Assembly (NCBI RefSeq): GCF_003945235.1
Contig: NZ_RSDW01000001.1
Span: 4,410,001 to 4,442,000 of the forward strand
DNA length: 32,000 bases
Reading direction: 5' to 3'
Source of the DNA: Edaphobacter aggregans
GTDB taxonomy: Bacteria; Acidobacteriota; Terriglobia; Terriglobales; Acidobacteriaceae
Numbering within the stretch: the first letter of the stretch is position 1; each line of letters begins with the position of its first letter. This document shows positions 1,376 through 24,423 of the stretch, piece after piece. The position numbers and the translations under genes were made by a program. The notes below the pieces were generated by a model that was given only the letters and a program-made list of their open reading frames with translations, had not been told where the DNA came from and searched no databases.

Positions 1376-1723
1376 CTATTTTGCCTTTTTGTCGCGGCAG
1401 GAGCGAAGGTAGGCTACGAGGTCGTCGGTCTCGGATTTTTCGAGGATGTCGGCGAAGGAGGGCATTTGTTTACCGCCGTCGTGGATCTGGGTTCGGATCT
1501 GGGCTTCGTTGAGCCTGCGGCCTACGCCGGAGAGATCGGGGCCTTTGGTGCCTCCATGCTGGCGGATAGTGTGGCATTGAAGGCAGCCGGTTTCTGTGAA
1601 GACCTGGGCTCCCCGGATGCGTGGGTCTGCTGAGGGTGCCGATGACGTGGGCGGTGCGGCCTGCGCGAAGAGAGAGGCCGTGGCTGCGAGTGAGAGGAGG
1701 AGAACAGGACGTAGCAGGTTCAT
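1376..1723 (-). CDS. Monohaem class-I c-type cytochrome (115 aa)
   Basis: Signal peptide MNLLRPVLLLSLAATASLFAQA. Single CLQCH haem-binding motif with a distal Met candidate (GGKQMPSF). The start overlaps the stop of the upstream gene as ATGA (1720-1723). Confidence 0.9.
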   Translation of the reverse strand: MNLLRPVLLLSLAATASLFAQAAPPTSSAPSADPRIRGAQVFTETGCLQCHTIRQHGGTKGPDLSGVGRRLNEAQIRTQIHDGGKQMPSFADILEKSETDDLVAYLRSCRDKKAK

Positions 1724-5925: not shown

Positions 5926-6051
5926 TGGGTCCTGTCAGGTTCCGCGCGTCGGGAAAGACCGCGACGTAGCGTTGCTTGAACTGAGAAGAGCAAGCGTCCC
6001 CACCATACAATATTTCGATTTCGAGGACGAGTTAGAGGGAGTTCGGCGGGG

Positions 6052-7146: not shown

Positions 7147-7225
7147 AGATAAAGTTCTGACGCGCGCTTTCAGGATAGCTCAGCATGAAATGCCGACGCT
7201 CTAACAAAGACGCGCAGGCAGAGGC

Positions 7226-8260
7226 TTACTGCTCGACGGCCGCATGGGGCCAGTTGTCTTTCCAATCGATTGTCGAGATCTGCAGGTAAGGTTTGCCGGT
7301 GATGGAGTCGTAGGCGTGAAAGACAATGATGTCATCTCCCTTCGAATTAATGAGAACGCTCTGCCCGCCGGGACCGAGCCAACGCGAATTGGATAGAAGA
7401 AGTGGCGTCCCGCCACCCTGCGCGAGAGGGGTTCCGGTTGCGTCGATGTAAGGGCCGGTGACAGATTGAGATCTTCCGACCATAGTTTTGTATGTGCTCT
7501 TGAGGCCGCGGCAGCAAAGATCCCATGAGGTGAAGAGGTAGTAAAAGCCGCCATGGCTGACTATGAACGGAGCCTCGATGGCCTGCCAATTGGGTGGCAG
7601 GCTGGCGGATTCGGAGCCGGCATCCGCTGTCGGTTTTGCACGACGTGCGAGAGAGTACAACGTCGTATCGGACTTTGACAGCATGCCTGCGTCGTCGAGG
7701 CGACGCATTTTGATGCCGTCCCAGAAACTGCCGAAGGCGAGCCAAGCTGCATCTTTCTTGTCGAGGACGAGGTTAGGGTCGATTGCGTTGAAGTCGTCGG
7801 TGGCTAGCGATTCAAGTACGAGCCCTTTGTCGATCCATTTGTAATCGGGGCTTATGGGGTCAAGAGTTTTGTTCGTGGCGAGGGCGATTCCAGAGGTGTT
7901 TTTACCGAACAATGAATAGGCGTAGTAGAGCCGATACTCGCGATTGACGTAGGAAATGTCGGGGGCCCAGAGATCCCGGGTACCAGGACTGCGCTCCTTG
8001 ATCCAGGCAGGGATCGCGTCGAAGACATGGCCGCACAACTTCCACTGCGTCAAATCGCCGGAGCAACGTATGGCAAGCTGCCCGCCGTCGGGGGCTTTAC
8101 CGGTCGCAAAGACATACCAGGTATTGCCCTCGCGGATGATGGAGGGATCATGGGTGCCTGCGATGTCACCAGAGAGATGATAGGCGTGTGGCTGTTGTGC
8201 AGTGCAGATGTTTACGAGGGACAGCAAAAGCACGATCGATGTTTTGCTCGAATGAATCAT
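7226..8260 (-). CDS. Secreted GH43 glycoside hydrolase, endo-1,5-alpha-L-arabinanase-like (344 aa)
   Basis: Signal peptide (MIHSSKTSIVLLLSLVNICTAQQ). GH43 propeller motifs (GTHDPSIIREGNTWYVFATG, LWAPDISY, IEAPFIV). Strong SD AAGGAGG lies 3 nt upstream of the ATG. Confidence 0.8.
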   Translation of the reverse strand: MIHSSKTSIVLLLSLVNICTAQQPHAYHLSGDIAGTHDPSIIREGNTWYVFATGKAPDGGQLAIRCSGDLTQWKLCGHVFDAIPAWIKERSPGTRDLWAPDISYVNREYRLYYAYSLFGKNTSGIALATNKTLDPISPDYKWIDKGLVLESLATDDFNAIDPNLVLDKKDAAWLAFGSFWDGIKMRRLDDAGMLSKSDTTLYSLARRAKPTADAGSESASLPPNWQAIEAPFIVSHGGFYYLFTSWDLCCRGLKSTYKTMVGRSQSVTGPYIDATGTPLAQGGGTPLLLSNSRWLGPGGQSVLINSKGDDIIVFHAYDSITGKPYLQISTIDWKDNWPHAAVEQ

Positions 8261-8296
8261 GTCCCTCCTTCTGTTGCAAGTTGCAATGCTGCGATT

Positions 8297-9877
8297 CTAC
8301 TGAGAGCGTGTGGTGGCGGCGATTTTACGGAGTTCGGGTAAAAGTGTGCCCAGCGACGCTGGTGCTGCATCCGGCTGGCCGAGGGCGAAGTATGCATTGC
8401 GGTAGAGGGGGTAGAGCTGGTCGTAGACTGCAACGGCGTCGGATTGGGGCAGGAAGGTGCGGTAGCGGAGGCAGACGGATTGCTGCGCTTCTTCGATGGA
8501 TTTAAAGGCACCTGCGGCGAGCAGCGCAAAGATGCCGGAGCCGAGGCTTGTGGACGTGCCGTCGGGAACGAGAACTGGCTTGTTGAGGACGTTGGCGTAG
8601 ATCTGGTTGAGGACGGCGTTGTTCTGCGGAATGCCTCCTGCGTTGATGATGCGTTCGACCGGAACGCCGTGCTCGGCCATGCGCTCGAGGATGATGCGGG
8701 TATGGAAGGCTGTGCCTTCGATGGCGGCGAAGAGTTCGTCCTGCGCGGTGTGGAGGAGGTTCCAGCCGAAGGTGACACCACCTAGTTCGGGGTTGACGAG
8801 GATGGTGCGGTCGCCGTTGTCCCAGGAGAGACGAAGGAGGCCGGTTTGTCCGGCGCGGTATGCTTCGAGACCCTGGGCGAGGTCGCGGACCTTGGTGTTA
8901 GCGCGGCGTGCGATGGACTCGAAGATGTCTCCGGTGGCAGAGAGACCGGCTTCGATGCCGGTGTAGCTTGGGTGCACGCTGCCGGGGACGACGCCGCAGA
9001 CTCCGGGGACGAGTTCGGTCTTCTTCGCCATAGCGATGATGCAGGTCGAGGTGCCGACTACGTTGACGACGTCGCCCTCGCGGCAGCCCGCGCCGATGGC
9101 ATCCCAGTGAGCATCGAAGGCACCGACGGGGATGGGGATGCCGGGCTTGAGACCCATCTTTTCGGCCCACTCAGAAGAGAGATAGCCCGCAATGTGATCG
9201 CTGGCGAGGTATTCTCCGCCCAGCTTTGCGCGGATGCCGTCGAAGAGAGGATCAAGTTTTGAAAGGAACGACTGAGGAGGCAGGCCGTCCCACTTGGGGT
9301 TCCACATCCACTTATGGCCCATTGCGCAGGCGCTGCGCCGAACTTTGGCGGGGTCGGTCACGCCGGTTAGGGTGGCGGCGACCATGTCGCAGTGCTCGAG
9401 GGCGGTGGCGAAGCGGTCTCGTTTGTCGGGATTGTTGCGGAGCCAGTGGAGGAGTTTGGCGAAGCCCCACTCGTGGGAGTAGACCCCGCCGCACCACTGA
9501 ATGGCTTCAAGGTCTTCCGCGTGGGCAAGTTCGGTGATCTGGCGGGCTTCGTTGTGGGCACGGTGGTCGCACCAGAGGTAGTAGTCGTCGAGCGGTTGGA
9601 GGGTGGCGTCCACGGGAATGACGCTGGAGCCCGTGGTGTCGAGGGCTATTGCGGCGATGTCCTGGCCGTTGATGTTGTTTTCAGTGAGGACCTGACGAGT
9701 GGCACGGACGAGGGCCTGCATCTGATCGGCGTGGGACTGGGTGGCGTAGTCGGGATCTTCGCGGCGACGGTGGAGGGGGTATTCAGCAGAGGCAGTGCCG
9801 ATGCGACCTTGGGTGCTGTCGAGGAGGGTCACTCTGACGCTGAGGGTTCCGAAGTCTACTCCAGCTACGATGGGCAC
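8297..9877 (-). CDS. araB: L-ribulokinase (FGGY carbohydrate kinase family), 526 aa
   Basis: Sequence blocks match the ribulokinase subfamily as I recall E. coli AraB: GVDFGTLSVR, ALDTTGSS, GGVYSHEWGFAKLLH, CAMGHKWMW..WDGLPPQSF, GAFDAHWDAIGAG, VVGTSTC. SD-like AAGGAAG lies upstream. The stop is 36 nt upstream of the GH43 gene. Confidence 0.9.
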   Translation of the reverse strand: MPIVAGVDFGTLSVRVTLLDSTQGRIGTASAEYPLHRRREDPDYATQSHADQMQALVRATRQVLTENNINGQDIAAIALDTTGSSVIPVDATLQPLDDYYLWCDHRAHNEARQITELAHAEDLEAIQWCGGVYSHEWGFAKLLHWLRNNPDKRDRFATALEHCDMVAATLTGVTDPAKVRRSACAMGHKWMWNPKWDGLPPQSFLSKLDPLFDGIRAKLGGEYLASDHIAGYLSSEWAEKMGLKPGIPIPVGAFDAHWDAIGAGCREGDVVNVVGTSTCIIAMAKKTELVPGVCGVVPGSVHPSYTGIEAGLSATGDIFESIARRANTKVRDLAQGLEAYRAGQTGLLRLSWDNGDRTILVNPELGGVTFGWNLLHTAQDELFAAIEGTAFHTRIILERMAEHGVPVERIINAGGIPQNNAVLNQIYANVLNKPVLVPDGTSTSLGSGIFALLAAGAFKSIEEAQQSVCLRYRTFLPQSDAVAVYDQLYPLYRNAYFALGQPDAAPASLGTLLPELRKIAATTRSQ

Positions 9878-9904
9878 TCGTTCTTCCTTGTCTCGGGTTG
9901 GTTG

Positions 9905-9918
9905 AGAAATCGTTTACT
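9905..9918. promoter_or_regulatory. Candidate LacI-family operator upstream of araB
   Basis: AGAAATCGTTTACT is an imperfect palindrome centred on CG. Read on the minus strand (AGTAAACGATTTCT) it matches 10 of 14 positions of the TGTAAACGTTTACA-type LacI/GalR consensus. It lies 28-41 nt upstream of the araB ATG. Confidence 0.3.
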
Positions 9919-10280
9919 TTGGTAAGTTTTAACGGCCAGAGTGCGCCGTTGTCAATCGAGAAACAACAAGTTGTACTCTCCCGTGGTGGCTGATTTAGAG
10001 GCCTCCTGTTTTTGTTAGAGGCATTTAAGAATGCGACCTTGAGGTCGGATGCGAACATGCGAACGCTGCTTGAAGTATCGAATGAATCACGACGCCTCGA
10101 AGTCTTCGATGGATTTTTCCGATCTGCGATCGGCTCGTTTTTGCGGGGAGCATTTTAAATTTCTGCGAGACAACGTCCACGAAAATCATGGTGCAGCTTA
10201 ATTAGCTGGAAACCATATTTTGATCTTTTGTGGGAACAAGATAGAGCCAATGTAGGTATCAGCAGATAAACTTCTCCATA

Positions 10281-12029
10281 ATGTTCAGGTCCGTGCAAAT
10301 CGCTCGTCTTTTCATGGCTGCTGTGCTTTGTATCTTGGCTGCCGCAAAAAACCAAGAGGGTTTTGCTCAGGCTACGACGCTGCCTTTAAATGTTGTTCCG
10401 GGCCAATTCGTTGACACGACTGCGACCAGCAAAGTCCACTTTAGCAGCGTGGCTTCCCATACGGCGAAAAAATATCTTCTGGAAACCATGGGTTCAGGTG
10501 TTGCGCTTTTCGATTATGACAACGATGGTCTGCTGGATATTTTTTTTGTCAATGGCGCACCACTTGCCGATCCAAGCCTTAAAGGCACAATTCCGATGAA
10601 GGCCACCGAACGCGACTGGAATCGCCTCTATCATCAAAAGAAAGACGGCACGTTTGAAGATGTCACCGTCAAAGCCGGTTTACAGGGAGTCGGATATGGC
10701 ATGGGCGTGGCTGTCGGCGACTATGACAATGATGGATATGAGGACCTATATGTCACCGCTTATGGTGGTAACCGTCTTTACCATAACAACGGCAATGGCA
10801 CGTTTACTGACGTTACAGAGAAGTCAGGTACCGCTGGTAGCGGCTGGTCAACTTCAGCTGCCTGGGTAGACCTCGACAATGATGGTCTTCTCGACCTCGT
10901 CGTACTGCGCTACCTTCAGTGGGACTTCGATGATATCTGGTGTGGAGAGCACCGCGAGGGCTATCGTTCGTACTGCCATCCTGACATATTTAAAGCCGTT
11001 GCTCCTCTTGTTTACCATAATGACGGCGACGGTCATTTCACTGAAGTATCAGCCAAGGTTGGTATGAATCTTCCAGGGAAAGGCCTTGGAATTGCAATCG
11101 CCGACTTCGATCGCGACGGCCATATCGATGTTGCTATCGCCAACGACTCGATGCTTGAATTCCTTTACCGGAACAAGGGAGACGGTACCTTTGAAGAAGT
11201 GGGCTTAGGAGCCGAGATCGCAGTCGACGGTGATGGCCGCACTTACGCAGGTATGGGCATCGACTTCCAGGACTACAACAACGACGGTCTGCCCGACCTG
11301 GTGATTACTAATCTTGCAAACCAGAAATACGCTATCTATCGCAATAATGGTGACGGTAGCTTCAGCTATGACACGTACCAGACAGGACTAGCCGGTATTA
11401 CTCTTCTGCACTCGGGCTGGGGTATCCATTTCCTTGACTATGACAACGATGGCTTCAAAGATCTTCTTGTTGCTCAAGGGCACGACCTCGACACGATCGA
11501 GCTTAACTTCCCGCAACTTCACTATCGCGAACCCCTACTGCTTGCGCGCAATACGGGTAAAACATTCGTCGATGTCTCCTCCCAATCTGGAGACGTTTTT
11601 CGACAGCCGTGGGTCGCGCGAGGTTTGGCTATAGGCGATATCGACAACGATGGCCGCATCGATGCCGTGGTCGCCGTCAATGACGGGCCAGCACACATCC
11701 TCCACAACGAGACCGCGACCGGAAACCACTGGCTCACACTTGCTTTAGTGGGCCACCGCAGCAACCGCGACGCAATTGGCGCTGAGGTCAAACTTACGAC
11801 TACTCACGGCTCTCAGTTCGTTACGGTCTCTACCTCAGGTAGTTATCTCTCCGCCAACGACAAGCGTGCTCACTTCGGTCTCGGTACGGACGCTGTCGCA
11901 ACTTCGATCGATATTCGCTGGCCGAGTGGGATTACCCAGCATCTGAGTAACATAAAAGCCGACCAGATTTTTAAGGTCGATGAGCCGGCCCAGTCCACCT
12001 CTGTTGCCACAGGCATGAAGACTCCATGA
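10281..12029 (+). CDS. Second CRTAC1-family secreted protein (FG-GAP/VCBS repeats plus ASPIC/UnbV), 582 aa
   Basis: Signal peptide (MFRSVQIARLFMAAVLCILAAA). FG-GAP motifs (DYDNDGLLDIFF, DYDNDGYEDLYV, DLDNDGLLDLVV, DFDRDGHIDVAI, DYNNDGLPDLVI, DYDNDGFKDLLV, DIDNDGRIDAVV). ASPIC/UnbV tail (HWLTLALVGHRSNRDAIGAEVKL...SGSYLS...HFGLG...IDIRWPSG). Confidence 0.85.
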   Translation: MFRSVQIARLFMAAVLCILAAAKNQEGFAQATTLPLNVVPGQFVDTTATSKVHFSSVASHTAKKYLLETMGSGVALFDYDNDGLLDIFFVNGAPLADPSLKGTIPMKATERDWNRLYHQKKDGTFEDVTVKAGLQGVGYGMGVAVGDYDNDGYEDLYVTAYGGNRLYHNNGNGTFTDVTEKSGTAGSGWSTSAAWVDLDNDGLLDLVVLRYLQWDFDDIWCGEHREGYRSYCHPDIFKAVAPLVYHNDGDGHFTEVSAKVGMNLPGKGLGIAIADFDRDGHIDVAIANDSMLEFLYRNKGDGTFEEVGLGAEIAVDGDGRTYAGMGIDFQDYNNDGLPDLVITNLANQKYAIYRNNGDGSFSYDTYQTGLAGITLLHSGWGIHFLDYDNDGFKDLLVAQGHDLDTIELNFPQLHYREPLLLARNTGKTFVDVSSQSGDVFRQPWVARGLAIGDIDNDGRIDAVVAVNDGPAHILHNETATGNHWLTLALVGHRSNRDAIGAEVKLTTTHGSQFVTVSTSGSYLSANDKRAHFGLGTDAVATSIDIRWPSGITQHLSNIKADQIFKVDEPAQSTSVATGMKTP

Positions 12030-12116
12030 AGCAACTGCTGGGTGATGGGCGATATGGTTATTGACGTAACAATTTATATGCGTCGTCCTTGAGTCCTTTG
12101 GTGAGAGAGTTCCTGA

Positions 12117-12145
12117 TAGACTCGCTGCAAACTAGGCTCTATAGT
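12117..12145 (+). promoter_or_regulatory. Possible sigma70-type promoter for the TIR operon
   Basis: TAGACT (12117-12122), a 17-nt spacer, then TATAGT (12140-12145), about 57 nt upstream of the TIR-gene ATG. This is a pattern match only. Confidence 0.2.
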
Positions 12146-12202
12146 CTCTCTAAGAGCGCGCCGGGCCTGCGCAAGTGAGTACTCGTTTGAGGGACCAACG
12201 GT

Positions 12203-13690
12203 ATGAGCTTCGATTGCGATGCCTTCATCAGCTATACCCATATTGATAATGTGAGCCTTGTCGACGGAAGCAAAGGATGGATTACGAATCTCCATCGTGC
12301 TCTTGAGATTCGAGTGGGACAATTGTTGGGTGAGACGCCTGAGATATGGCGCGACCCGAAGCTGACAGGAAACGATGTCTTCGAAAACACACTGGTGGAA
12401 CAGCTCAAGCGAGTAGCTGTTCTTATAACGGTGGTCTCGCCTCGCTACGTGAAGTCGGAATGGACACGGCGAGAGCTGGTGGAGTTTTGGAAAGCCGCCG
12501 AAGCACAAGGGGGAGTGAAGTTTCACGACAAAGCGCGCATCTTCAAGGTTCTGAAGACGCCTATCCCACGCCAGATGGATCCACCTGAATTGCAACCGCT
12601 TTTGGGTTATGAATTTTTTCACGTCGATGCGGAGACGGGGCGTGTGCGCGAACTGGACGATGTCTTCGGCGCACAGGCGCAAAAAGATTTTTGGATGAAA
12701 CTGGATGACCTGGCGCACGATATCGCGGGTCTGCTGGAGATATTGCAGGGAGAATCGCTGGAGGGTGTGCCGGGAGTTAAGACGAGCACGAAAGAAGCGG
12801 TATTTCTGGCTGAAACAACCGCCGATCTGAAGGAGCAACGAGAGGCAATTCGGCGAGATCTGCAACAACACGGCTATACGGTGCTGCCTGCGCAAGGCCT
12901 ACCGTTGGTGGCATCCGAGATGAAGACGTCGCTTGAAGAGGATTTAGCCCAATGCAGGATGTCTATCCACCCGATTGGAAAGAATTATGGGCTCGTTCCT
13001 GAAGGTAGTAGCGTGTCTCTGCTTGAGATTCAAAACGAACTTGCGATCGAAAGAGGCAAGCGTGGAGGATTTGTGCGGCTTCTGTGGATTCCTGCCGGAC
13101 TTCAGGTCGAAGACGAGAGGCAGGCGAAGCTTATTCAGCAGTTTCGGATGGATCCGAGAATGCAGGCGGAAGCGGACTTGCTGGAGACTTTTCTTGAGGA
13201 TCTGGAGACAGTTATTCATGATCGTCTGAGAGAAGAGAAGCCAAAAATTGCGCAGCAAAATGGCAGCCTGGCGATAGCAGAAGGGTGCCGTGGACAGATT
13301 TACCTTATCTACGATCAGCGGGATGCTTCCATCGCATCGCTATATGCAGACGCCTTGTTCAATCAGGGGTTTGAGATTCTTCATCCCACGTTTGAAGGAG
13401 ATGAAGCGGAGGTGCGGCAATACCACGAAGACAATCTGCGGGTTTGCAATGGTGTGCTGATCTTCTTCGGATCCGCCAATGAAGGATGGGTTCGGCGGAA
13501 ACTTAGAGAGGTGCAGAAGAGCGTCGGGTACGGCCGTACAGGGCCTCTACCAGGCGTCACGATCTCATGCGTAGGAGCGAAGACCGCCGAGAAAGAGCGC
13601 TTTCGCACGCATGAGGCCCCAGTGATTTTTCAGATGGATGGCTTTTCAGCCGACATTCTGTCGCCGTTTATTTCACGCCTGAAGTCTTGA
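12203..13690 (+). CDS. TIR-domain protein with two additional TIR-like/DUF4062-like modules (495 aa)
   Basis: The N-terminal ~140 aa fit the TIR pattern: DAFISYTHIDN (betaA), IWRDPKLTGNDVFENTLVEQLKRVAVLITVVSPRYVKSEWTRRELVEFW (BB-loop Gly, then an S.W...EL motif). The Glu at the usual catalytic position is E91, nt 12473-12475. Module 2 (~aa 198-300): AVFLAETTADLKEQREAIRRDLQQHGYTVLP...CRMSIHPIGKNYGLVPEGSSVSLLEIQNELA, which resembles DUF4062. Module 3 (~aa 365-440): IYLIYDQRDASIASLYADALFNQGFEILHP...CNGVLIFFGSANEGWVRRKLRE. SD GAGGGA lies 8 nt upstream. Confidence 0.85.
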   Translation: MSFDCDAFISYTHIDNVSLVDGSKGWITNLHRALEIRVGQLLGETPEIWRDPKLTGNDVFENTLVEQLKRVAVLITVVSPRYVKSEWTRRELVEFWKAAEAQGGVKFHDKARIFKVLKTPIPRQMDPPELQPLLGYEFFHVDAETGRVRELDDVFGAQAQKDFWMKLDDLAHDIAGLLEILQGESLEGVPGVKTSTKEAVFLAETTADLKEQREAIRRDLQQHGYTVLPAQGLPLVASEMKTSLEEDLAQCRMSIHPIGKNYGLVPEGSSVSLLEIQNELAIERGKRGGFVRLLWIPAGLQVEDERQAKLIQQFRMDPRMQAEADLLETFLEDLETVIHDRLREEKPKIAQQNGSLAIAEGCRGQIYLIYDQRDASIASLYADALFNQGFEILHPTFEGDEAEVRQYHEDNLRVCNGVLIFFGSANEGWVRRKLREVQKSVGYGRTGPLPGVTISCVGAKTAEKERFRTHEAPVIFQMDGFSADILSPFISRLKS

Positions 13691-13707
13691 GGAGAGATCT
13701 GGGAACC

Positions 13708-16530
13708 ATGTTCAATCCCTTTCCGGGTTTGCGTCCATTTGAGGCTGATGAAGACCACCTGTTCTTTGGGCGGGAGAAAGAGATCGACGAGTTGTTGCGG
13801 AGGCTTCGCGCCTGCCGGTTTCTGTCGATCATTGGAACGTCGGGGAGTGGTAAGTCGTCGCTGGTGCGATCGGGTCTGATTCCTTCGCTCTACGGTGGGT
13901 TCATGGTGGGTGCAAGCCCGAGTTGGCGGATCGCGATCATGCGTCCCGGTGAAGACCCTATACGGCATCTGGCAGAAGCTTTGAATTCGCAGGGGGTGCT
14001 GGGGACGACAGGCGAATTGGAGACTACGAATGGTGTGCTGCTGGAAGCTACGCTGCGGCGAGGCACGCGAGGACTTGTCGAAGCTGTTCGTCAAGCCAGG
14101 ATGCTGGATCAGGACAACCTGCTGATTGTGGTGGATCAGTTTGAAGAGCTGTTTCGTTTCAGGAGAAACAATCAGCTCGAGAACTCCAGGAATGAGGCGG
14201 TAGCCTTCGTTAAGCTTCTACTTGAGGCAGCCCAACAGGAAGAGCTTCCTATCTACATCGTCATCACCATGCGCTCCGACTTCATTGGAGACTGCATGGA
14301 TTTTGCAGGACTGCCGGAAGCGGTAAACAGCGGCTTGTACCTTGTGCCTCGTATGACACGTGACGAATTGCGCTCGGCGATTACGGGACCGGTGGCGGTT
14401 GGAGGCGGGAGCATCGCGCAGAGATTGGTTTTGCGCCTGCTCAACGACTTTGGCGATGAGTACGACCAGCTTCCTATCCTTCAGCATGCTCTTATGCGGA
14501 CGTGGGACTATTGGGCTCGGAGGTCACCATCAACTGATGCTATCGACGTCGAAGATTACGAAGCGATCGGAACCTTCCGCCAGGCACTGTCGATACATGC
14601 TGAGGAAGCTTACGAAGAGACTGGCACTGATGGTGCAAAGATGTTAGCCGAGCGGATATTTAAAGCACTGACGGATACATTTTCGGATCATCGAGGTATT
14701 CGCAGGCCAACCTCTGTCGGAGATCTCACTGCTATCTCCGAATCGACACAGGCGGATGTAGTTCGGATCGTTGAGATCTTTCGACGACCCGGTCGTTCCT
14801 TTCTGATGCCTCCCGCTAATGTGCCTTTAGACGATCGATCGGTTATCGATCTGTCGCATGAGAGTTTTATGCGGTGTTGGGGGCGGCTTGTCGGCTGGGC
14901 CGAGGAGGAGAAGGTTTCTGCTGATATCTACAGTCGTCTCTCCGACGCGGAGATATGGTTTGAAGAGGGCAGAGCGGGGCTTTGGCGCAACCCGGAACTA
15001 GAGATCGGGCAGAAGTGGAAGCTCGAGAGTCGACCTACTGCGGCCTGGGCTCAACGTTACAATTCGTCTTTTGCTCAGGTAATGGGATTTCTTGATCGTA
15101 GCGAGGCAGAGTGGCAGCGTCTCAACGACGAGAAGAAGAGGGAACGGCAGAAGAAACTCAGACAGACTCAGTGGGCCGCTGGGATATTGGGCTCATTGCT
15201 TCTGATTGCTCTCTTTCTGGCGGACTTTGCGTGGAGGCAGACGCGTCGTGCAGAGAACAACCTACAATTGGCGAAGAAGGCAGTGGATGAAAGTTTGTCC
15301 TCTGCGGGGCGTGAGCAGGGACGCGAGGCGGGTGACCTACCGCAGGTAGAACAATTTCGAAAAGAGCTTTTGGATAAGGCTGAAACTTTCTATAGCCTAT
15401 TCGCTCAGCAGAATTCAACAAATGCAAACTTGCGAAGCGAAGAGGCCCGAGCACATTCCAGACTGGGAGATATCAATCGTTTGATGGGCAGGGATAAAGA
15501 AGCTGTTCAGGAATACAACGAATCAATCGATCAGTTTTCAGTTCTAGTAAAGCAATATCCCACTCAAAATGAATTCCGTCAGGCGCTCGCGTATTCCCAT
15601 AATTGGCTGGGGGAAACTATCCGTGACGCGCTGGATAGAAAATCAAGTTTGAATAGTTCAGCCGACGCCGATAAGGAGTACAGTGAAGCCATTCGTCTAC
15701 AGGAAGAGTTACACAAGGAACAGCCAACGAATGTTCTTTACCAGCAGGAACTCGCGCGGACTTACTATAACCGGGGAATCATTCGTTATGGGATGCACGC
15801 TGACGACGGAATGCGATCTGATTTTCGCAAGGCAGTTGAGTTGCTGGAGCCTTTAGTTTCAAAAACTCAAACCACAGTGGATACAAGTGAAAATCCAGAC
15901 CCCGCTCAGGATTTGGCGCGGGTCTACAATAACTATGCAATTGTAGTTAGCAATACGGGCCAAACCACAGAAGCTCAGGGCTTTTACGAGAAGGCGATCG
16001 CGCTTGCCGAGCAACTGGTCCAGAAGAGACCAGAGAATCGGGAGTATAAGGTGGAGCTTGCGCAGTACTGCATCAACGAAGCGAGGATGTTGGAAGCCGC
16101 AGGCGAGTCTCGCCTGACGGAAGCAAGAAGCGAGCGCGCCCTGAAACTTGTAGAGGAATTGGCGGAGCCGACGCCGTCCCTTGCTATAAAGATGGTTCAG
16201 GCTCTTCAGTTAAGGGGGCAGTTGCTTCGGCCCCATGATCCAGACGCAGCAAAGGCTTTGACGGATCAGGCCTTTGATTTGCTGAGGGACGTCGACGAAA
16301 AGAGTGCGAAGAATGTTACTCCGTTCAGTGCGCTATATATGAACATTGGAGTGAATTATCTCGAACTCGCCCAGGACGACCTCGCACATGGTGACAAAGC
16401 AGGCGCAAGAACAGCACTTGGCTATCTGACTGCAATACTGTCTCACTTATCACCTGAGGACAAACAGATACTTATCGAACCTTACCAAGACTTACAGGGA
16501 AAACTATCTATCGGGCCGACCAGACACTAG
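13708..16530 (+). CDS. STAND-class P-loop NTPase (nSTAND1-like) with a predicted single membrane helix and a C-terminal TPR array (~940 aa)
   Basis: The lead-in FNPFPGLRPFEADEDHLFFGREKEIDEL precedes Walker A GTSGSGKSS (13834-13860). Walker B is LLIVVDQFEE (14119-14148), followed by IYIVITMRSDFIGDC...LYLVPRMTRDELRSAITGP. A hydrophobic helix WAAGILGSLLLIALFLADFAW (15172-15234) is flanked by KKRERQKKLRQ and RQTRR. About 380 aa of TPR-like repeats follow (ARAHSRLGDINRLMGRDKEAVQEYNESI, LARTYYNRGIIRY, LARVYNNYAIVVSNTGQTTEAQGFYEKAIAL). The track starts the ORF at TTG 13687, which overlaps the TIR stop as TTGA. I prefer ATG 13708 (GAGGAGAG 13689-13696 upstream), but both remain possible. Confidence 0.85.
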   Translation: MFNPFPGLRPFEADEDHLFFGREKEIDELLRRLRACRFLSIIGTSGSGKSSLVRSGLIPSLYGGFMVGASPSWRIAIMRPGEDPIRHLAEALNSQGVLGTTGELETTNGVLLEATLRRGTRGLVEAVRQARMLDQDNLLIVVDQFEELFRFRRNNQLENSRNEAVAFVKLLLEAAQQEELPIYIVITMRSDFIGDCMDFAGLPEAVNSGLYLVPRMTRDELRSAITGPVAVGGGSIAQRLVLRLLNDFGDEYDQLPILQHALMRTWDYWARRSPSTDAIDVEDYEAIGTFRQALSIHAEEAYEETGTDGAKMLAERIFKALTDTFSDHRGIRRPTSVGDLTAISESTQADVVRIVEIFRRPGRSFLMPPANVPLDDRSVIDLSHESFMRCWGRLVGWAEEEKVSADIYSRLSDAEIWFEEGRAGLWRNPELEIGQKWKLESRPTAAWAQRYNSSFAQVMGFLDRSEAEWQRLNDEKKRERQKKLRQTQWAAGILGSLLLIALFLADFAWRQTRRAENNLQLAKKAVDESLSSAGREQGREAGDLPQVEQFRKELLDKAETFYSLFAQQNSTNANLRSEEARAHSRLGDINRLMGRDKEAVQEYNESIDQFSVLVKQYPTQNEFRQALAYSHNWLGETIRDALDRKSSLNSSADADKEYSEAIRLQEELHKEQPTNVLYQQELARTYYNRGIIRYGMHADDGMRSDFRKAVELLEPLVSKTQTTVDTSENPDPAQDLARVYNNYAIVVSNTGQTTEAQGFYEKAIALAEQLVQKRPENREYKVELAQYCINEARMLEAAGESRLTEARSERALKLVEELAEPTPSLAIKMVQALQLRGQLLRPHDPDAAKALTDQAFDLLRDVDEKSAKNVTPFSALYMNIGVNYLELAQDDLAHGDKAGARTALGYLTAILSHLSPEDKQILIEPYQDLQGKLSIGPTRH

Positions 16531-16558
16531 TACGCGATTCCATCTTGAGGAGTTTCGA

Positions 16559-17731
16559 ATGCGACTATTGGTTTCCAGAGTATGTCTGTTGCTATCTGCC
16601 TTCGTGTTCTCCACTGCCGCAGTAGCGGCTCAGGAGCATTTTTCTCAAACAACTGATATTGATTCGCCGTTGTTGCAATCCGATAAGCCCTATTCCGTCG
16701 CCGAATATCGCGTCTCTTCTATCTTCGATCACAGTGATTTGATTCACTATCCTCAGAACCTGAGCCTGTATTGGATCCAGACCTCTGCCAATCCACCTAA
16801 ACCGGCTAAACCTCCCGTTGAAAAGATCAAGAGGACGGCAATCGATCCCAGCATGGTCGGATACATTGACAATGCTGTTGTTCACTCTGAGGTGCGGGTT
16901 CGCTTTGATGCGGCGATGGATGATACAACTCCGGACCGAGCTGAGTTTTTTTATGCTAAGTGCGGATGCTATGCGTTTCTTACCGGCACGAACGCTTATG
17001 ATCCTCGGACGCCTGGGCCCGGGGTGGCTCCGCCTGTTGGTATTCCCAGAGCGGTCAACTTCCAGCAGCTTTATTTTTATGGTGAGTATGCGCCTCATCC
17101 TCACCTTTCGTTGTTTATGCAGCTTCCTTTTCGTTGGCTTCAAGCGCAATCTTTGCCCGGTGTGGCGCAGGCTTTTCCGAATGCTGGTGGATTCAGCGAT
17201 ATGCAAGTGGGGCTTAAATTTGCCGCTCTTGCTTCGGCCCGCCATTACCTCACGTTTCAATTTCGGGCTTATACGCCTACTGGCGATGCCGGGCTAGGGT
17301 TGGGGACGCATCACTATAGTGTGGAGCCGTCCCTTCTGTACTACCAGAGGCTTTCGGAGCGAACGTCTGTGGAGGCCGAGGTCGGGGACACGCATCCGTT
17401 GGGCACGTCTTCGGGCGTTCCCACCGTTGGTTCCGGCGGGTTTGCGGGCGACGTGTTCTTCTACGGGGTTGGGCCGAGCTACCAGTTCGTGCGTGACGAG
17501 AAGTTTGGTGTGGCGGGGGTCCTTGAGGTCGTCGGATGGAACGTCCGTAGTGGATATGTCACGGGGCCAGCTAATCCGAGTACGGCAGGTGTGAATATCG
17601 TGAACATGAAGGTAGGTCCGCGCATGTCGTTTGGGGCGCACCATTCCTTGTATATCGGATATGGAATTGGGCTGACTTCAGCGAAGTGGTATCGGCAGAT
17701 TTTCAGGACAGAGTATCGTTATTCGTTTTGA
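16559..17731 (+). CDS. Putative outer-membrane beta-barrel protein (resembles the MetA-pathway/'transporter' OMP family), 390 aa
   Basis: Signal peptide MRLLVSRVCLLLSAFVFSTAAVAAQE. Pro-rich linker PPKPAKPP. C-terminal beta-signal with alternating aromatics ending in Phe (FRTEYRYSF). Internal motifs GFSDMQVGLKFA and YTPTGDAGLGLGTHHYSVEPSLLY recall that OMP family. SD GAGGAG lies 6 nt upstream, 28 nt after the NTPase stop. Confidence 0.55.
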   Translation: MRLLVSRVCLLLSAFVFSTAAVAAQEHFSQTTDIDSPLLQSDKPYSVAEYRVSSIFDHSDLIHYPQNLSLYWIQTSANPPKPAKPPVEKIKRTAIDPSMVGYIDNAVVHSEVRVRFDAAMDDTTPDRAEFFYAKCGCYAFLTGTNAYDPRTPGPGVAPPVGIPRAVNFQQLYFYGEYAPHPHLSLFMQLPFRWLQAQSLPGVAQAFPNAGGFSDMQVGLKFAALASARHYLTFQFRAYTPTGDAGLGLGTHHYSVEPSLLYYQRLSERTSVEAEVGDTHPLGTSSGVPTVGSGGFAGDVFFYGVGPSYQFVRDEKFGVAGVLEVVGWNVRSGYVTGPANPSTAGVNIVNMKVGPRMSFGAHHSLYIGYGIGLTSAKWYRQIFRTEYRYSF

Positions 17732-17758
17732 TCCTTCATTTCAGGAGCGGTTTTCTCT

Positions 17759-18196
17759 ATGAGCCAGGAAGTCGTCGTTGTCGCCGACCCCATCATGGGG
17801 CGTCTCGAGGATCAGATCGCGTGGTATGACTGCAAGAGCCTCCAAAATCAGCACGTCTATAAGCGGATCAAAGTTGTTGAGATACTGGCTGCTGCAACGA
17901 TTCCGCTCATTGCTGCCCTGCCTATCCCCCATCAGGCGGTCATTACAGGCAGCCTTGGCGTCTTGATTACTGTGCTCGAAGGGCTGATTCACCTTAACCA
18001 GTACCAGCAGAACTGGATCGCATACAGATCGACTTGCGAGGCTCTCAGGCACGAGAAATATGTCTACCTCGGTAAGGCGTCTCCGTATGCGGGCGTAGCG
18101 GATGCGTATGCTCTGCTGGCTGAACGAATTGAATCTCTGGTCTCGCAGGAGCACGCTAAGTGGGCTGCCTCGCAGTCTCAGGAGAGCAAGAAATAG
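17759..18196 (+). CDS. DUF4231 / SLATT-family two-transmembrane-helix protein (145 aa)
   Basis: The pattern LEDQIAWYDCKSLQNQHVYKRIK is followed by two hydrophobic helices (VVEILAAATIPLIAALPI, nt ~17873-17926; AVITGSLGVLITVLEGLIHL, nt ~17936-17995). The conserved post-TM segment follows: NWIAYRSTCEALRHEKYVYLGKASPY. SD AGGAG lies 11 nt upstream, 27 nt after the OMP stop. Confidence 0.7.
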   Translation: MSQEVVVVADPIMGRLEDQIAWYDCKSLQNQHVYKRIKVVEILAAATIPLIAALPIPHQAVITGSLGVLITVLEGLIHLNQYQQNWIAYRSTCEALRHEKYVYLGKASPYAGVADAYALLAERIESLVSQEHAKWAASQSQESKK

Positions 18197-18316
18197 GCTA
18201 AGTGTCTCCCGCTCAACTACGGTTTTTGATGTACCCTCTATCCCGTACTTCGAGTCCTAAAGTCTTCGAAACAGATGGCATAGGTCTGGACTTGCCCCGA
18301 ACCCTGTGTCAGAAAA

Positions 18317-18352
18317 GAAGAGCCCGGCTTTCGCCGGGCTTCTCGTTTTTCT
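18317..18352. terminator. Bidirectional rho-independent terminator between the SLATT operon (+) and the GH3 gene (-)
   Basis: Perfect 8-bp GC-rich stem AGCCCGGC/GCCGGGCT (18321-18328 / 18333-18340) with loop TTTC. It is flanked by CAGAAAAGA on the left (a T-run on the minus strand) and CGTTTTTCTTCT on the right. Confidence 0.65.
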
Positions 18353-21292: not shown

Positions 21293-22753
21293 TTAGGTGT
21301 TGGCGGGAAGACGGACGACGAACTCGGTGTCACCGGGCATGGAGGTGAAGTGGATGGTGCCGCCGTACTGCTCGACGATGCGATGCACGATGCCGAGGCC
21401 GAGGCCGGTGCCTACGCCGACGGGTTTGGTGGTGTAGAAAGTGTCGAAGATCTGAGTTTGGCTTTCCAATGGGATGCCGCTGCCGTTGTCGCTGATGCGG
21501 ATGCAGAGGTAGGTTTGATCTTTACCGGCAGAGAGCGTTTTCTCGGCCCACGTGCGAATGCTGATTCGTCCGCGCTGCGGGATAGCGTCTATTGCGTTGT
21601 CGAGGAGATTGGTCCAGATCTGATTTAGGCCGGAGCATTCGGAGTGGAGGAGGGGAAGGTCGGGGGTGAGGTCTTTTTCTAGGGTGACTTCTTTTTCGCG
21701 GAGTTTGTGGCCGAGGATAACGAGCGTGGCGTGGATGCTGTTGTTGATGTCGACACTTTGAAGCTTGCCCTTGCCCTCGTAGGCGTAGGATTTGACTGCC
21801 ATTACGAGGTCGGAGACTCGACCGATGCTCTCTTCGATGGTGCCGACGAGTTGCATGCTGGATACGAGGGCATCGAGCCAGCTTAGAGCGTCGGAGAAGG
21901 TTTCGCCGGGGAATTGGGTGCGGGCGCACTCGAGTTGCGTGGAGTTGAGGCCGGCAGAGACTAGTGTGGGGGCCATCTTCCAGGCGTTGGGGAGATTGGC
22001 GGCTTCCATCCATTCGGCGAGGGCTTCTTCGGCGTCGCTCTGTTCGAGTGAGTTCATGACGGCTTGCGGCTTCGAGGAGAGCGCTCGCTCCTGCAGGTCG
22101 AACATGCACTCTTTCTGCTCGGCGGTCATGGCGGTTTTGCTGAATTTGGCGGAGAGCTCGTGCATGCGCATGAGATTTTCGCGGAGCTGGGAGGCGGCCC
22201 GACGAGCGGCGGCGCCGGGGTTGTTGAGTTCGTGCATCAAGCCCGCAGCGAGGGTGCCGAGGGAGGCCATTTTTTCCTGCTGGACGGTCGCGCCCTGAAG
22301 TTTGAGGAAGCGATTGGCCATGTTGCCGAGGATGGCTTTGCGGACGTCGGGGCAACTGGTCATAAGGTGCCAGAACTGCTCTTCGCCGAATTGCAGCAGG
22401 TGGCTTGGCGCGACTGCCTGCAGATTGGCGATGTTGGGGATGTTGGCGAGCAGAGGAACTTCGCCGAAGGCGCTGCCGGCTGGGATGTTGGCCAACGTGG
22501 CTTCGTTGCCGTCGGCGAGTTTCTGGACGAGACGGAGCTCGCCTTCGAGGAGGATCCAGAAGAAGTGAGCGGCCTCTCCCTGGCGCGCGATGATGTCGCC
22601 GGGGTGGATGTGGATCTCCTGGACTTCATCCAGACAGAGAAGCTCATCCTCTTTGAGCGAGGACAGGATGGGGACCGTGCGAAGCTTCTCGATCATGGCC
22701 TCGCTCATCTTCTCGGTGCGTTCATTCTGGACTGCCTGGGATTGGTCGCTCAT
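21293..22753 (-). CDS. Sensor histidine kinase with an N-terminal CAP/cNMP-binding-like effector domain
   Basis: cNMP-binding-fold pattern ([47 protein letters not shown]...[10 protein letters not shown]). H-box [17 protein letters not shown]-box [11 protein letters not shown]1 [10 protein letters not shown]2 GTGLGLGIV. Start moved from the track's 22846 to ATG 22753 (MSDQSQAV), 23 nt after the upstream gene's stop. Confidence 0.85.
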
Positions 22754-22776
22754 CGCTGTTGTCGGGGTATGCCCTT

Positions 22777-24423
22777 TCAGAGTGTTGCAAGATATTGGTG
22801 CACGAATTGGATTGCGATGGAGCCCTCGCCTACCGCGGAGGCGCATCGTTTGACGGAGTTATAGCGGACGTCGCCGGCCACAAAGATACCGGGGACGCTG
22901 GTTTCGAGGAGATAGGGGTCGCGGTCGAGCTTCCATGCCCCGGGGGCCTTGGCTTTGAGATCGGGGCCGGCGAGCACGAAGCCCTTGCTGTCGCAGACGA
23001 GTTCCTTGGGGAGCCAGTCGGTCTTGGGTGCGGCACCGATGAAGATGAACAGGGAGGAGGTTGAACGCTCCTCCTGGCCGGTCGGGGTCTTCAGCGTCAA
23101 CGTCTCAAGGTGGCTGTTGCCGTTCATCGCAGTGACCTCAGTGCAGGTCTCGACGACGATATTGGGGGTGGCGCCGATCTGGTCGATCAGGTACTTCGAC
23201 ATGCTCTTTTCGAGGGAGTCGCCGCGTATGAGCATATGGACCTTGGCTGCATAGCGAGCGAAGTGCATGGCTGCCTGCCCTGCGGAGTTGGCGCCTCCGA
23301 CGATGTAGACGGTTTCGTTGGCGCAGGCCATGGCTTCGGTGAGTGCCGCGCCGTAGTAGACGCCGGCTCCGCTGAACTTGTCGGCTCCGGGAACGTCGAG
23401 CATGCAGTAGGCGACGCCAGTAGCGAGAAGGCACACGTGACAGGTAATCTCGCTGCCGTCCTTCATCTGGACGATCTGGTACTGGTTCTCAGAGCGGATG
23501 CAGGTTACGCGCTGAAGGAGGAACTCTGCACCGAGGCGGCTTGCCTGGAGGAAGGCGCGCTTGGCGAGCTCGTCGCCGCTGAGGCCGGAGGGGAAGCCGA
23601 GATAATTTTCGATCTTGGAGCTGGAGCCTGCCTGGCCTCCGGGAGCGTTGGGTTCGACGATGAGGGTGCGAAGGCCTTCCGAGGCTCCGTAGACGCCTGC
23701 AGCCAGACCTGCAGGACCGGCTCCGATCACAACGACGTCGTAGAACTTCTGCTGAGCCTGGGTGGGTATACCTACCTTATTCGCCAGCTCGGTGATGCTC
23801 GGCTGCACGAGAGCGGTGCCGTCACCGAAGAGGACGACCGGGAGTTTGGCGTCATCGATGCCCTTTTCTTTCAAAAGCGCGAGTGCGTCGGGATTCTGCT
23901 CCGGGTTCAGAGACTGGTAGGGAATGCGGTTTCGCGAGAGGAAGTCGCGGATTTCGTGGTCCATCGGGGACCAGCGGACGCCGATGACGCGGATGCCTTC
24001 GAAGGGGGGCTTGTAACCCTGCTTCCAAGCTTCGAGGAGGTCATCGAGGACGGGGTAGAGCTTTTCTTCGGGCGGGTCCCAGGGCTTGTTGAGGTAGTAG
24101 TGAATTTTGGCGGAGTTGATGGCGCGGATGGCCGCTTCGGTGTCGGCGTAAGCGGTCAGAAGGACTCGCTTGGCGTCGGGATAGATCGTCAGGGCATGCT
24201 GGAGAAAATCGACGCCGGTCATGCCGGGCATGCGCTGGTCCGATAGGAAGAGGGCAACGATGTCGTTGCGTTCCTTGAGTTGGCGGCAGATATCCAAAGC
24301 GGCGGCCCCGGAGGCGGCACGGACGATTCGGTAGTCCTGACCGTAGTTACGGCGCAGGTCCTGGACTACGGCTTCCAGTACGCTGATGTCGTCGTCGATT
24401 GCTAGGAGAATTGGCTTCGGCAT
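22777..24423 (-). CDS. Response-regulator receiver fused to a thioredoxin-reductase-like FAD/NAD(P)H oxidoreductase (548 aa)
   Basis: REC domain with an acidic pocket (LLAIDDD) and a phospho-acceptor context (ALFLSDQRMPGMTG). A ~90-aa linker domain follows. FAD site VVVIGAGPAGLAAGVYGA. NAD(P)H site VYIVGGANSAGQAAMHFA. C-terminal GIFVAGDVR. Confidence 0.85.
   Translation of the reverse strand: MPKPILLAIDDDISVLEAVVQDLRRNYGQDYRIVRAASGAAALDICRQLKERNDIVALFLSDQRMPGMTGVDFLQHALTIYPDAKRVLLTAYADTEAAIRAINSAKIHYYLNKPWDPPEEKLYPVLDDLLEAWKQGYKPPFEGIRVIGVRWSPMDHEIRDFLSRNRIPYQSLNPEQNPDALALLKEKGIDDAKLPVVLFGDGTALVQPSITELANKVGIPTQAQQKFYDVVVIGAGPAGLAAGVYGASEGLRTLIVEPNAPGGQAGSSSKIENYLGFPSGLSGDELAKRAFLQASRLGAEFLLQRVTCIRSENQYQIVQMKDGSEITCHVCLLATGVAYCMLDVPGADKFSGAGVYYGAALTEAMACANETVYIVGGANSAGQAAMHFARYAAKVHMLIRGDSLEKSMSKYLIDQIGATPNIVVETCTEVTAMNGNSHLETLTLKTPTGQEERSTSSLFIFIGAAPKTDWLPKELVCDSKGFVLAGPDLKAKAPGAWKLDRDPYLLETSVPGIFVAGDVRYNSVKRCASAVGEGSIAIQFVHQYLATL

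Follow-up and report, generated by a model that had tools for sequence, protein, structure and literature searches.

The 32,000-nucleotide stretch of the chromosome of Edaphobacter aggregans that was analyzed here (referred to below as the window) carries a four-gene operon at 12203-18196, which encodes, in this order, a TIR protein, a STAND-type nucleoside triphosphatase (NTPase), an outer-membrane protein (OMP), and a SLATT protein. The first three genes form a conserved triad, and the NTPase is predicted to span the inner membrane by a single transmembrane (TM) helix that places its long array of tetratricopeptide repeats (TPRs) in the periplasm. We rate the chances about even that the operon, with this membrane-spanning STAND switch at its center, works as a conflict module of the immune type, that is, an envelope-sensing variant of the STAND-TIR systems. 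The features of the locus are as follows.

12203-13690, plus strand: gene 1, 495-aa protein with TIR_2 and DUF4062 domains
13708-16530, plus strand (TTG start at 13687 as an alternative): gene 2, nSTAND1-TM-TPR NTPase of 940/947 aa
16559-17731, plus strand: gene 3, 390-aa protein with a signal peptide and a β-barrel (Phenol_MetA_deg)
17759-18196, plus strand: gene 4, two-TM protein of the SLATT_1/DUF4231 family, 145 aa
12117-12145, plus strand: candidate promoter TAGACT-17-TATAGT, a consensus match upstream of gene 1
18313-18348, both strands: bidirectional intrinsic terminator with 16-nt arms, stem GAGCCCGGC/GCCGGGCTT, and T-runs on each strand

An earlier note on this DNA had described four closely spaced, co-directional genes, a Shine-Dalgarno-like element for each, and a closing hairpin terminator, and all of these were recovered. 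The gene coordinates were reproduced exactly: the gene 1/2 junction is either a TTGA overlap (TTG at 13687) or a gap of 17 nt to the ATG at 13708, and the spacing is 28 nt between genes 2 and 3 and 27 nt between genes 3 and 4. The Shine-Dalgarno-like elements are GAGGGA (start at 12203), GGAGAG (13708), GAGGAG (16559), and AGGAG (17759). The terminator, whose core stem (18320-18341) has 7 G-C pairs, separates gene 4 from a convergent gene for a GH3 β-glucosidase. All four open reading frames (ORFs) are real genes, with protein-level conservation in dozens of genomes and thousands of metagenome clusters.

Conserved core of the operon

One genome per species was scanned, which yielded 38 homologous loci, 34 of them long enough to hold the OMP gene. 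They belong mostly to Acidobacteriota (Acidobacteriaceae, Acidiferrales, Sulfotelmatobacter, Vicinamibacterales, and Luteitalea). Of the 34 loci with room for all three, ~33 have the TIR, NTPase, and OMP genes in one and the same order, down to ~45% identity (tblastn), and the flanking genes were unrelated between loci. The conserved core is TIR, NTPase, and OMP. This alters the picture given in the earlier note, where the OMP gene was described as embedded between the NTPase and SLATT genes; it is a core partner, and the neighborhood is kept as far as the triad goes. A SLATT gene adjoins the triad in only seven loci, namely the window, L001, L002, L004, and L005 (same order) and L029 and L036 (rearranged), and it is missing from ~27 of the 34 loci that keep the other three genes. 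SLATT is a lineage-specific accessory gene, not part of the core.

Stop/start overlaps between the TIR and NTPase genes and between the NTPase and OMP genes occur in many loci and also on an independent metagenome contig. At the DNA level, homology to L004 and L005, which have different genomic contexts, spans exactly 12110-18196, and homology to L001 starts at 12068, directly after the upstream FG-GAP gene. The sharing of 12110-18196 across contexts means that the four-gene cassette together with its promoter region is the relocating unit; the candidate promoter at 12117-12145 lies inside the segment (from ~12110) that is shared with operon copies in other genomes. One copy of the operon is carried on a megaplasmid, where it adjoins an IS6 insertion sequence (IS) transposase. 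Pairwise divergences of all parts of the system are correlated (r = 0.89 to 0.96), and the divergence of the OMP tracks that of the TPR domain over that of the NTPase domain (partial r of 0.53 compared to 0.36; permutation p = 5e-4). This co-divergence of OMP and TPR is suggestive only. Three of the triad loci (L019, L022, and L024) are labeled Bifidobacterium, Acidimicrobiia, and Solirubrobacteraceae, i.e., monoderm Actinomycetota, labels that probably stem from misbinning or misclassification of metagenome-assembled genomes.

More distant relatives share the NTPase-TM core and differ in what is attached to it. In relatives from Eiseniibacteriota and a cyanobacterium, this core is accompanied by a gene 1-like protein, the periplasmic part is another long TPR array or WD40, and the OMP is absent; therefore, the OMP goes with the gene 2-type TPR. 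A betaproteobacterial locus on plasmid pSBC2-4 of Caballeronia sp. SBC2 (L041, 1140-8540) encodes proteins of the DUF4231/SLATT type (577 aa), the gene 1-like TIR type (539 aa), and the nSTAND1-TM-WD40 type, and it adjoins an IS3 transposase; here the combination of TIR, STAND, and SLATT occurs without an OMP. On a plasmid of Runella rosea (L040; NZ_CP030852.1, 4015-10794), STAS and RsbW-like HATPase_c_2 genes precede an nSTAND1-TM-WD40 gene (1063 aa), which is followed 26 nt downstream by a TonB-dependent receptor gene, so that partner-switching proteins stand in place of the TIR. On a Persicobacter plasmid, the NTPase is paired with a 10-TM HEAT protein. Because the Caballeronia, Runella, and Persicobacter proteins all carry a single TM helix at about residues 490-545, nSTAND1 plus one TM helix plus extracytoplasmic repeats appears to define a subfamily that is broad and whose partners are interchangeable. 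The partner of the TM-anchored nSTAND1 is an outer-membrane barrel twice independently, in the triad and at the Runella locus.

Domains and topology of the four proteins

Profile searches placed the TIR, DUF4062, nSTAND/TPR, OMP, and SLATT assignments of the earlier note above cutoff in all four proteins, and the two residues it had singled out, E91 of gene 1 and the Walker A lysine K56 of gene 2, were correctly positioned and are invariant in homologues. Gene 2, numbered here from the TTG start at 13687, matches nSTAND1 (PF20703) over residues 11-428 with 1.4e-92 and 311.8 bits (cutoff, 27.1), and the match takes in positions 1-375 of the 379-position profile. Its Walker A (GTSGSGKS, G50-S57) and Walker B (VVDQFEE) motifs are invariant in 29 aligned homologues. 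Pfam matches to TPR_2, TPR_8, and TPR_12 fall at residues 587-805, together with a weak, sub-threshold match to TPR_Slam, and the TPR array as a whole covers ~430 aa (residues 520-947, nt 15244-16527). The protein has exactly one strongly hydrophobic helix (residues 497-515, nt 15175-15231). Of the 38 homologues, 37 have an equivalent helix, 19-23 residues long with a mean hydropathy of 1.6-3.0, in this place, the exception being frameshifted, and this agrees with the membrane-anchored NTPase proposed earlier. The 15 residues preceding the helix contain 5-8 Lys/Arg, compared to 2-5 in the 15 residues after it. Since the ATPase must be cytoplasmic and there is a single TM helix, the ~430-residue C-terminal TPR region very probably lies in the periplasm. 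Sequence conservation is higher in the NTPase half than in the TPR half. When PDB was searched by sequence, the nSTAND1 domain gave no match and the TPR part returned generic kinesin-light-chain-type TPRs only. A lookup of the exact gene 2 protein sequence found no record.

Each element of this layout has parallels. ToxR/CadC-type regulators and PknB-type kinases join a cytoplasmic output to a periplasmic sensor through one TM helix, as in gene 2, and in the polysaccharide-export pairs of TPR and outer-membrane barrel (BcsC, PgaA, AlgK/AlgE, and Slam) periplasmic TPRs work with a barrel. The output here, however, is a STAND NTPase plus a TIR, and there is no sequence kinship with these proteins beyond generic TPRs and the weak TPR_Slam match.

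The gene 3 protein begins with a signal peptide (residues 1-23, cleaved between AVA and AQ), followed by a disordered, Pro/Lys-rich periplasmic N-terminal extension of ~65 residues (~24-87), a conserved segment at 88-105 in which residues 98-102 (SMVGY) are invariant, and a barrel (~108-390) that ends in a near-invariant C-terminal YRYSF β-signal. It matches Phenol_MetA_deg (2.2e-6; 28.3 bits against a cutoff of 22; Pfam), and its family comprises >1,200 clusters. The AlphaFold2 (AF2) model is a confident 12-stranded barrel (predicted template modeling score, pTM, of 0.68). The best Foldseek matches were FapF (5o65/5o68; E = 4e-11, TM-score of 0.6-0.7 on the target), followed by the COG4313 channel Pput2725 (4rl8; E = 1e-8). 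The likeness lies in the 12-stranded barrel and, for FapF, also in a long periplasmic N-terminal extension. On the other hand, identity is 13-15%, the gene stands in a TIR/STAND operon instead of a fap or catabolic operon, and loop 1 contains an invariant CGC. In the model the periplasmic turns of the barrel are 2-4 residues long, which leaves the N-terminal extension as the only sizeable part of the protein exposed to the periplasm. The CGC motif belongs to an invariant K134-C135-G136-C137-Y138 (window 16958-16972) within the conserved PDRAEFFYAKCGCY of the long loop 1. A CxC pair is unusual in an outer-membrane protein; it might bind a metal, serve in redox chemistry, or belong to a plug.

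Gene 1, which is 100% identical to a database entry labeled "uncharacterized protein DUF4062," matches the Pfam families TIR_2 (residues ~8-101; 1.7e-9; 38.6 bits against a cutoff of 28) and DUF4062 (residues 200-275; 3.5e-6; 27.5 bits against a cutoff of 24.7). It has three domains: the TIR_2 domain, a DUF4062-like α/β domain at ~196-345 marked by S272, E275, and Q277, and a third, TIR-like α/β domain at ~362-495 marked by W429 and K433. Hydropathy analysis found no TM segment, and the product appears to be cytoplasmic. W87, E91, Q277, and K433 are invariant among 54 homologues. The W87-x3-E91 motif of the TIR is also kept in the Caballeronia relative, and in an alignment to RUN1, a plant TIR, E91 falls on the catalytic Glu (WCLDEL motif). 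In the AF2 model, built with the 54 homologues, domains 2 and 3 are confident flavodoxin-like α/β folds (predicted local distance difference test, pLDDT, of 80-93). Foldseek with this model returned TIRs (SARM1, RPP1, and RPS4) as well as the nucleoside N-glycosidases BcmB and DNPH1. Comparison of the three domains with one another by hhalign gave suggestive local matches, the method being insensitive here and the alignments shallow (Neff ~2). The NCBIfam profile FxsC_Nterm matched below threshold (39 bits against a cutoff of 130); this match is a possible lead, FxsC being TIR-like with a STAND/TPR partner.

DUF4062/NIR is an NADase fold shown by experiment to act in defense (Swarozyc, Vulcan, Vesta, and Evangelion; 2026 preprints), with the catalytic Glu at E97 in KpSwz and E108 in PsAvs2 (2026 preprints). 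Domain 2 of gene 1 resembles these NADases in its above-threshold Pfam match and its TIR-like α/β fold, but it has an invariant Q277 near the expected catalytic position and is embedded between the TIR and the third TIR-like domain. The Pfam DUF4062 alignment and the weak KpSwz alignment (PDB 10wc; E = 0.6-0.9) both end at E275. Q277 is invariant even in the betaproteobacterial Caballeronia relative, where E275 is not conserved. In a residue register that is approximate, the comparison leans towards a replacement of the catalytic Glu of the DUF4062-like domain by Gln. In domain 3, the invariant K433 occupies the TIR-equivalent position. Gene 1 is thus probably a protein with one catalytically competent TIR and two TIR-like domains that bind or scaffold instead of hydrolyzing.

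The gene 1 family is large, with >1,800 clusters at 90% identity, and the three-domain module is found in ~1,180 clusters at 50% identity (E ≤ 1e-30). The module is fused to nSTAND1 in P0365 and, in frame, at L034; to Ser/Thr kinases at either end in P0362, P0363, P0479, and P0461; to a leucine-rich repeat (LRR) region in P0491; and to a CHAT protease in P0371. It seems to behave as a portable effector cassette, and these fusions lend Rosetta-stone support to the partnership of genes 1 and 2 and to an effector role for gene 1. The fusion to nSTAND1 could be an artifact, because where the stop and start codons overlap, gain or loss of one base would suffice to join the two genes.

Gene 4 matches DUF4231 (2.6e-20, 73 bits; Pfam) and SLATT_1 (2.1e-34, 118 bits against a cutoff of 41; NCBIfam), and it has two hydrophobic TM helices, at residues 39-57 and 61-79. 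It is predicted to be an inner-membrane, pore-forming effector. Relatives 73-77% identical to it are located between TIR genes in two other Acidobacteria loci, L043 and L047, without the NTPase or OMP. In L043 the order is TIR_2-Sel1, SLATT, and a 421-aa protein. In L047, the SLATT (73% identical to gene 4) lies in a TIR-rich island of an uncultured Acidobacterium (5937-12874), downstream of a D5_N primase gene, in the order TIR_2 (111 aa), TIR_2 (304 aa), SLATT, TIR_2 (421 aa), ThsB_TIR, and patatin.

A survey of the 120 nearest neighbors of the 38 loci found only two recurrent kinds of accessory gene, the others being housekeeping genes. The first is SLATT/DUF4231 (6 loci). The second, in 8-9 loci and in L039, encodes a 600- to 800-aa protein that has RyR and TPR-S/MAP3K_TRAF_bd domains, a class III nucleotidyl cyclase, and, in the middle, a domain without annotation (L009:4187-6487, L039:388-2397, L012, L013, L018, L022, L023, L030, L031, and L037). 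This gene is mostly divergent to the triad, and the loci that have it are without SLATT. For this reason, the RyR/TPR-S/cyclase protein may be an alternative receptor of the TIR signal. The TPR of the type VIII Thoeris effector presumably belongs to the Pfam TPR-S family. In type VIII, which has been validated, the effector bears a TPR that had earlier been predicted to sense TIR products (bioRxiv 10.64898/2025.12.03.692087). Both recurrent accessory genes are of the kind that receives TIR-made nucleotides, which suggests that the gene 1 TIR signals besides, or instead of, burning NAD+. In one Acidobacteria metagenome-assembled genome (L038:3660-5054), a second TIR_2 protein of 465 aa with a central TM segment follows the OMP, in the position taken by SLATT in the window.

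Genomic setting of the window

The lower-GC segment described earlier was confirmed, with a GC content of 0.49-0.556 over 10-18 kb compared to ~0.58-0.64 in the flanks. The coding-strand GC skew of the four operon genes is +0.03 to +0.17, compared to -0.15 to -0.27 in ten minus-strand genes of the flanks. The composition of the operon is thus atypical, or foreign: its GC content is low, and its skew is opposite in sign to that of the flanking host genes. The unusually high plus-strand GC skew was also considered as a replication signal and rejected, as it stems from the host genes on the minus strand, whose coding strands are rich in C. The window contains no tRNA genes, integrases, or flanking direct or inverted repeats, so a mobile-element mechanism cannot be named, and an Rfam search of the window gave no match.

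The GC dip begins upstream of the operon, at an FG-GAP/ASPIC gene (10281-12029), which has a GC content of 0.52 and a near-zero coding-strand skew. Its FG-GAP/UnbV_ASPIC paralogue at 4057-5925 has a GC content of 0.61 and is strongly C-rich. The FG-GAP gene is absent upstream of the L001 operon and may be a separate acquisition; in L045, an FG-GAP/ASPIC gene lies near a gene 4-like SLATT. Three other genes or gene pairs of the window, all on the minus strand, encode multidomain proteins. The first, at 1720-3972, encodes a 750-aa multiheme cytochrome (Cytochrome_C554, MtrC/MtrF-like) with a C-terminal TPR array. The second, at 21293-24423, is an unusual two-component output in which a cyclic nucleotide monophosphate-binding histidine kinase (517 aa) overlaps by ~70 nt a fusion of a response regulator and a pyridine-nucleotide-disulfide-oxidoreductase (548 aa). 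The third, at 27096-30623, encodes a 1175-aa fusion of GH18, a polysaccharide deacetylase, and a GT2/chitin-synthase-like domain.

Proposed mechanism and alternative readings

In the mechanism that we propose, gene 2 would reside in the inner membrane, with its nSTAND1 ATPase in the cytoplasm and its TPR solenoid in the periplasm, and gene 3 would form an outer-membrane channel of 12 strands, like FapF and COG4313, whose long N-terminal tail would extend into the periplasm. The solenoid would contact this channel, most plausibly via tail segment 88-105. When the outer membrane or the periplasm is disturbed (by phage adsorption, genome ejection, another invader, or a toxin), the TPR-channel complex would change, and the signal would pass through the single TM helix to permit NTP-dependent oligomerization of the cytoplasmic NTPase domains. 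This oligomer would bring copies of the gene 1 protein together and thereby turn on its N-terminal TIR (Glu91) against NAD+, the output being NAD+ depletion and/or a cyclic ADP-ribose (cADPR)-type signal. In the Edaphobacter lineage, the TIR signal would open the SLATT pore of gene 4 in the inner membrane; at Vicinamibacteria-type loci, the neighboring RyR/TPR-S/cyclase protein would replace SLATT and execute or amplify the response. We place moderate confidence in the TPR-OMP contact and little in the trigger, the TIR chemistry, and the abortive outcome; the activation of gene 1 via gene 2 is likewise a proposal. The working model of the earlier note, a STAND switch with TIR and SLATT effectors, remains reasonable except for its sensor: given the conserved TM helix and the probably periplasmic TPR array, the sensor is very unlikely to read cytoplasmic phage proteins as Avs does.

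The earlier conclusion that the operon is not a named system still stands. No PADLOC v2 model matched any of the four proteins significantly (best E = 0.029, to an unrelated model), and no paper describing the TIR/nSTAND1-TM-TPR/OMP/SLATT composition was found in the searched literature. Coupling of a TM-anchored STAND to an OMP is not mentioned in the DUF4062 and TIR preprints, nor in the searched text of Kaur 2021 (PMC8195603), the 2020 eLife paper, and the 2026 Nature STAND survey (PMC13581612). Periplasmic STAND sensing has a precedent, in that some STAND targets diversified by diversity-generating retroelements may expose sensors to the periplasm (Doré et al. 2024); the OMP-coupled triad does not. 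Two individual pairings that had seemed new, TIR with SLATT and the DUF4062 effector, are by now established elsewhere. The nSTAND1 conflict systems of Kaur, Iyer, Burroughs & Aravind 2021 (eLife, PMC8195603) belong to the same clade and have C-terminal repeat modules and TIRs among their effectors, but as described they link effectors via EAD/death-like adaptor domains, and the searched text names no TM helix, periplasmic sensor, or OMP partner, unlike the operon studied here. Avs/AVAST and other anti-phage STAND NTPases, with the DUF4062/NIR-bearing Avs2 and bNACHT among them, share with it the STAND switch with intact Walker A and B motifs, a TPR sensor, and an NAD+-degrading effector of the TIR family. 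In Avs, however, effector, STAND, and sensor form one polypeptide, whereas here the effector is a separate, translationally coupled ORF that is rarely fused, and the NTPase is of the nSTAND1 clade, opens directly with its nSTAND1 domain at residue 11, and comes with a TM helix, a predicted periplasmic sensor, and a conserved OMP. The operon is therefore not a member of Avs: it has its effector on a separate protein, it matches none of the Avs models, and its sensor is very probably not cytoplasmic.

Several observations count against the proposed mechanism. First, the TPR-OMP contact rests on co-occurrence and weak co-evolution, and the partial correlation could reflect rate differences; likewise, the topology of gene 2 rests on hydropathy and on the logic of a cytoplasmic ATPase. 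Second, the N-terminal TIR of gene 1 is poorly modeled by AF2 (pLDDT of 30-55), and domains 2 and 3 are probably not NADases because Gln (Q277) and Lys (K433) are found where a catalytic Glu is expected. Third, the defense-island location raised in the earlier note was not borne out. The window flanks consist of carbohydrate-metabolism and housekeeping genes, most of the 38 loci have housekeeping flanks as well, and PADLOC families match only single generic members among the 120 neighbors. Fourth, phage records and IMG/VR contigs contained no relatives of the system, and its divergence broadly follows taxonomy, a pattern expected of long vertical residence more than of the quick turnover typical of defense genes. 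Finally, the strongly conserved luminal loop of gene 3 is less suggestive of a rapidly evolving receptor than of a ligand or redox site, and the gene 3 family is annotated "transporter," with secretion and uptake channels as its nearest solved relatives.

Some of these points favor the strongest of the alternatives, a serious rival that we still consider improbable: a non-immune, envelope-linked signaling or regulated-cell-death device of Acidobacteriota in which the STAND is the switch and the TIR an NAD+ brake. Its cues could be, e.g., outer-membrane damage, hydrophobic or aromatic compounds arriving through the COG4313-type channel, or developmental and stress signals. The housekeeping flanks without defense-island enrichment, the rough agreement of divergence with taxonomy across Terriglobia and Vicinamibacteria, the conserved loop 1 of the OMP, and the inclusion of uptake channels for hydrophobic molecules in the Phenol_MetA_deg/COG4313 family are all consistent with it, and many non-defense STAND clades are reported in the Nature 2026 STAND survey (PMC13581612). 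Against such a device, TIR, DUF4062, SLATT, TPR-S, and nSTAND1 are all hallmark parts of conflict systems, and the gene 1 module is fused elsewhere to CHAT, LRR, and kinases. The operon also has an atypical composition and plasmid- and IS-linked copies, and the cassette is found at different loci in related genomes.

It is less probable still that the TIR and SLATT are a functional pair like that of Thoeris type VII, with the NTPase and OMP being separate or regulatory and merely co-transcribed. The pairing itself is a validated two-gene system: in Thoeris type VII, the ThsB TIR and the ThsH SLATT were shown experimentally to provide defense, with canonical cADPR triggering SLATT (bioRxiv 10.64898/2025.12.03.692087), so the statement in the earlier note that Thoeris pairs TIR with SIR2/SLOG or TM-macro proteins is outdated. 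The operon likewise has a TIR with its catalytic Glu and a two-TM SLATT, and the gene 4 relatives of L043 and L047 adjoin other TIRs in the absence of the NTPase and OMP. However, SLATT is optional here, and two genes intervene between it and the TIR gene in the window. The TIR protein, with three domains and 495 aa, is unlike the short ThsB and is tied to the STAND NTPase, to which it is translationally coupled and sometimes fused, and to the OMP. The conserved unit can do without SLATT, and for that reason the operon is not a two-gene Thoeris system.

We give an equally low probability to envelope sensing of the same kind with interbacterial attack as its trigger instead of phage, for instance by bacteriocins, type VI secretion system or contact-dependent toxins, or predators that invade the periplasm. 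The pairing of a periplasmic sensor with an outer-membrane channel would suit such a trigger, and no data link the system to phage proteins, nor were viral copies found, but the STAND, TIR, SLATT, and DUF4062 systems characterized so far are all anti-phage. A cytoplasmic, Avs-like sensor, in which the hydrophobic stretch would be a peripheral anchor and the OMP an unrelated neighbor, has a model in the Avs proteins, whose C-terminal TPRs bind phage proteins and which carry TIR or DUF4062 effectors, but it is very unlikely given the helix at the same place in nearly all homologues and across phyla, the conserved, co-oriented OMP gene that often overlaps the NTPase stop codon, and the lack of a PADLOC Avs match.

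If the operon is an envelope-sensing STAND-TIR module as proposed, trans-envelope sensing would potentially be a new principle within the STAND-TIR conflict systems. To our knowledge, all characterized bacterial STAND/NLR-like (nucleotide-binding leucine-rich repeat-like) receptors detect invaders in the cytoplasm, after their genome and proteins have entered. We suggest, tentatively, that the operon encodes the first such receptor to survey the periplasm and outer membrane, with a TPR arm that holds a FapF-like channel, TIR signaling upon breach, and interchangeable SLATT or TPR-S cyclase effectors, and that the nSTAND1-TM-WD40/TPR subfamily, as seen in Runella, Caballeronia, and cyanobacteria, is a class of trans-envelope immune receptors. 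Attack would then be detected at the envelope, the earliest possible point, and bacteria would have a counterpart of the eukaryotic division between surface and cytosolic pattern recognition. The tandem TIR-like domains of gene 1, of which only the first seems to be catalytic, bear on how TIR assemblies are nucleated, and the exchange of SLATT for the TPR-S cyclase provides a natural example of a single TIR module paired with alternative signal receptors. The system is abundant, and it occurs in Acidobacteriota, a dominant soil phylum that is experimentally neglected and barely covered by catalogues of defense systems.

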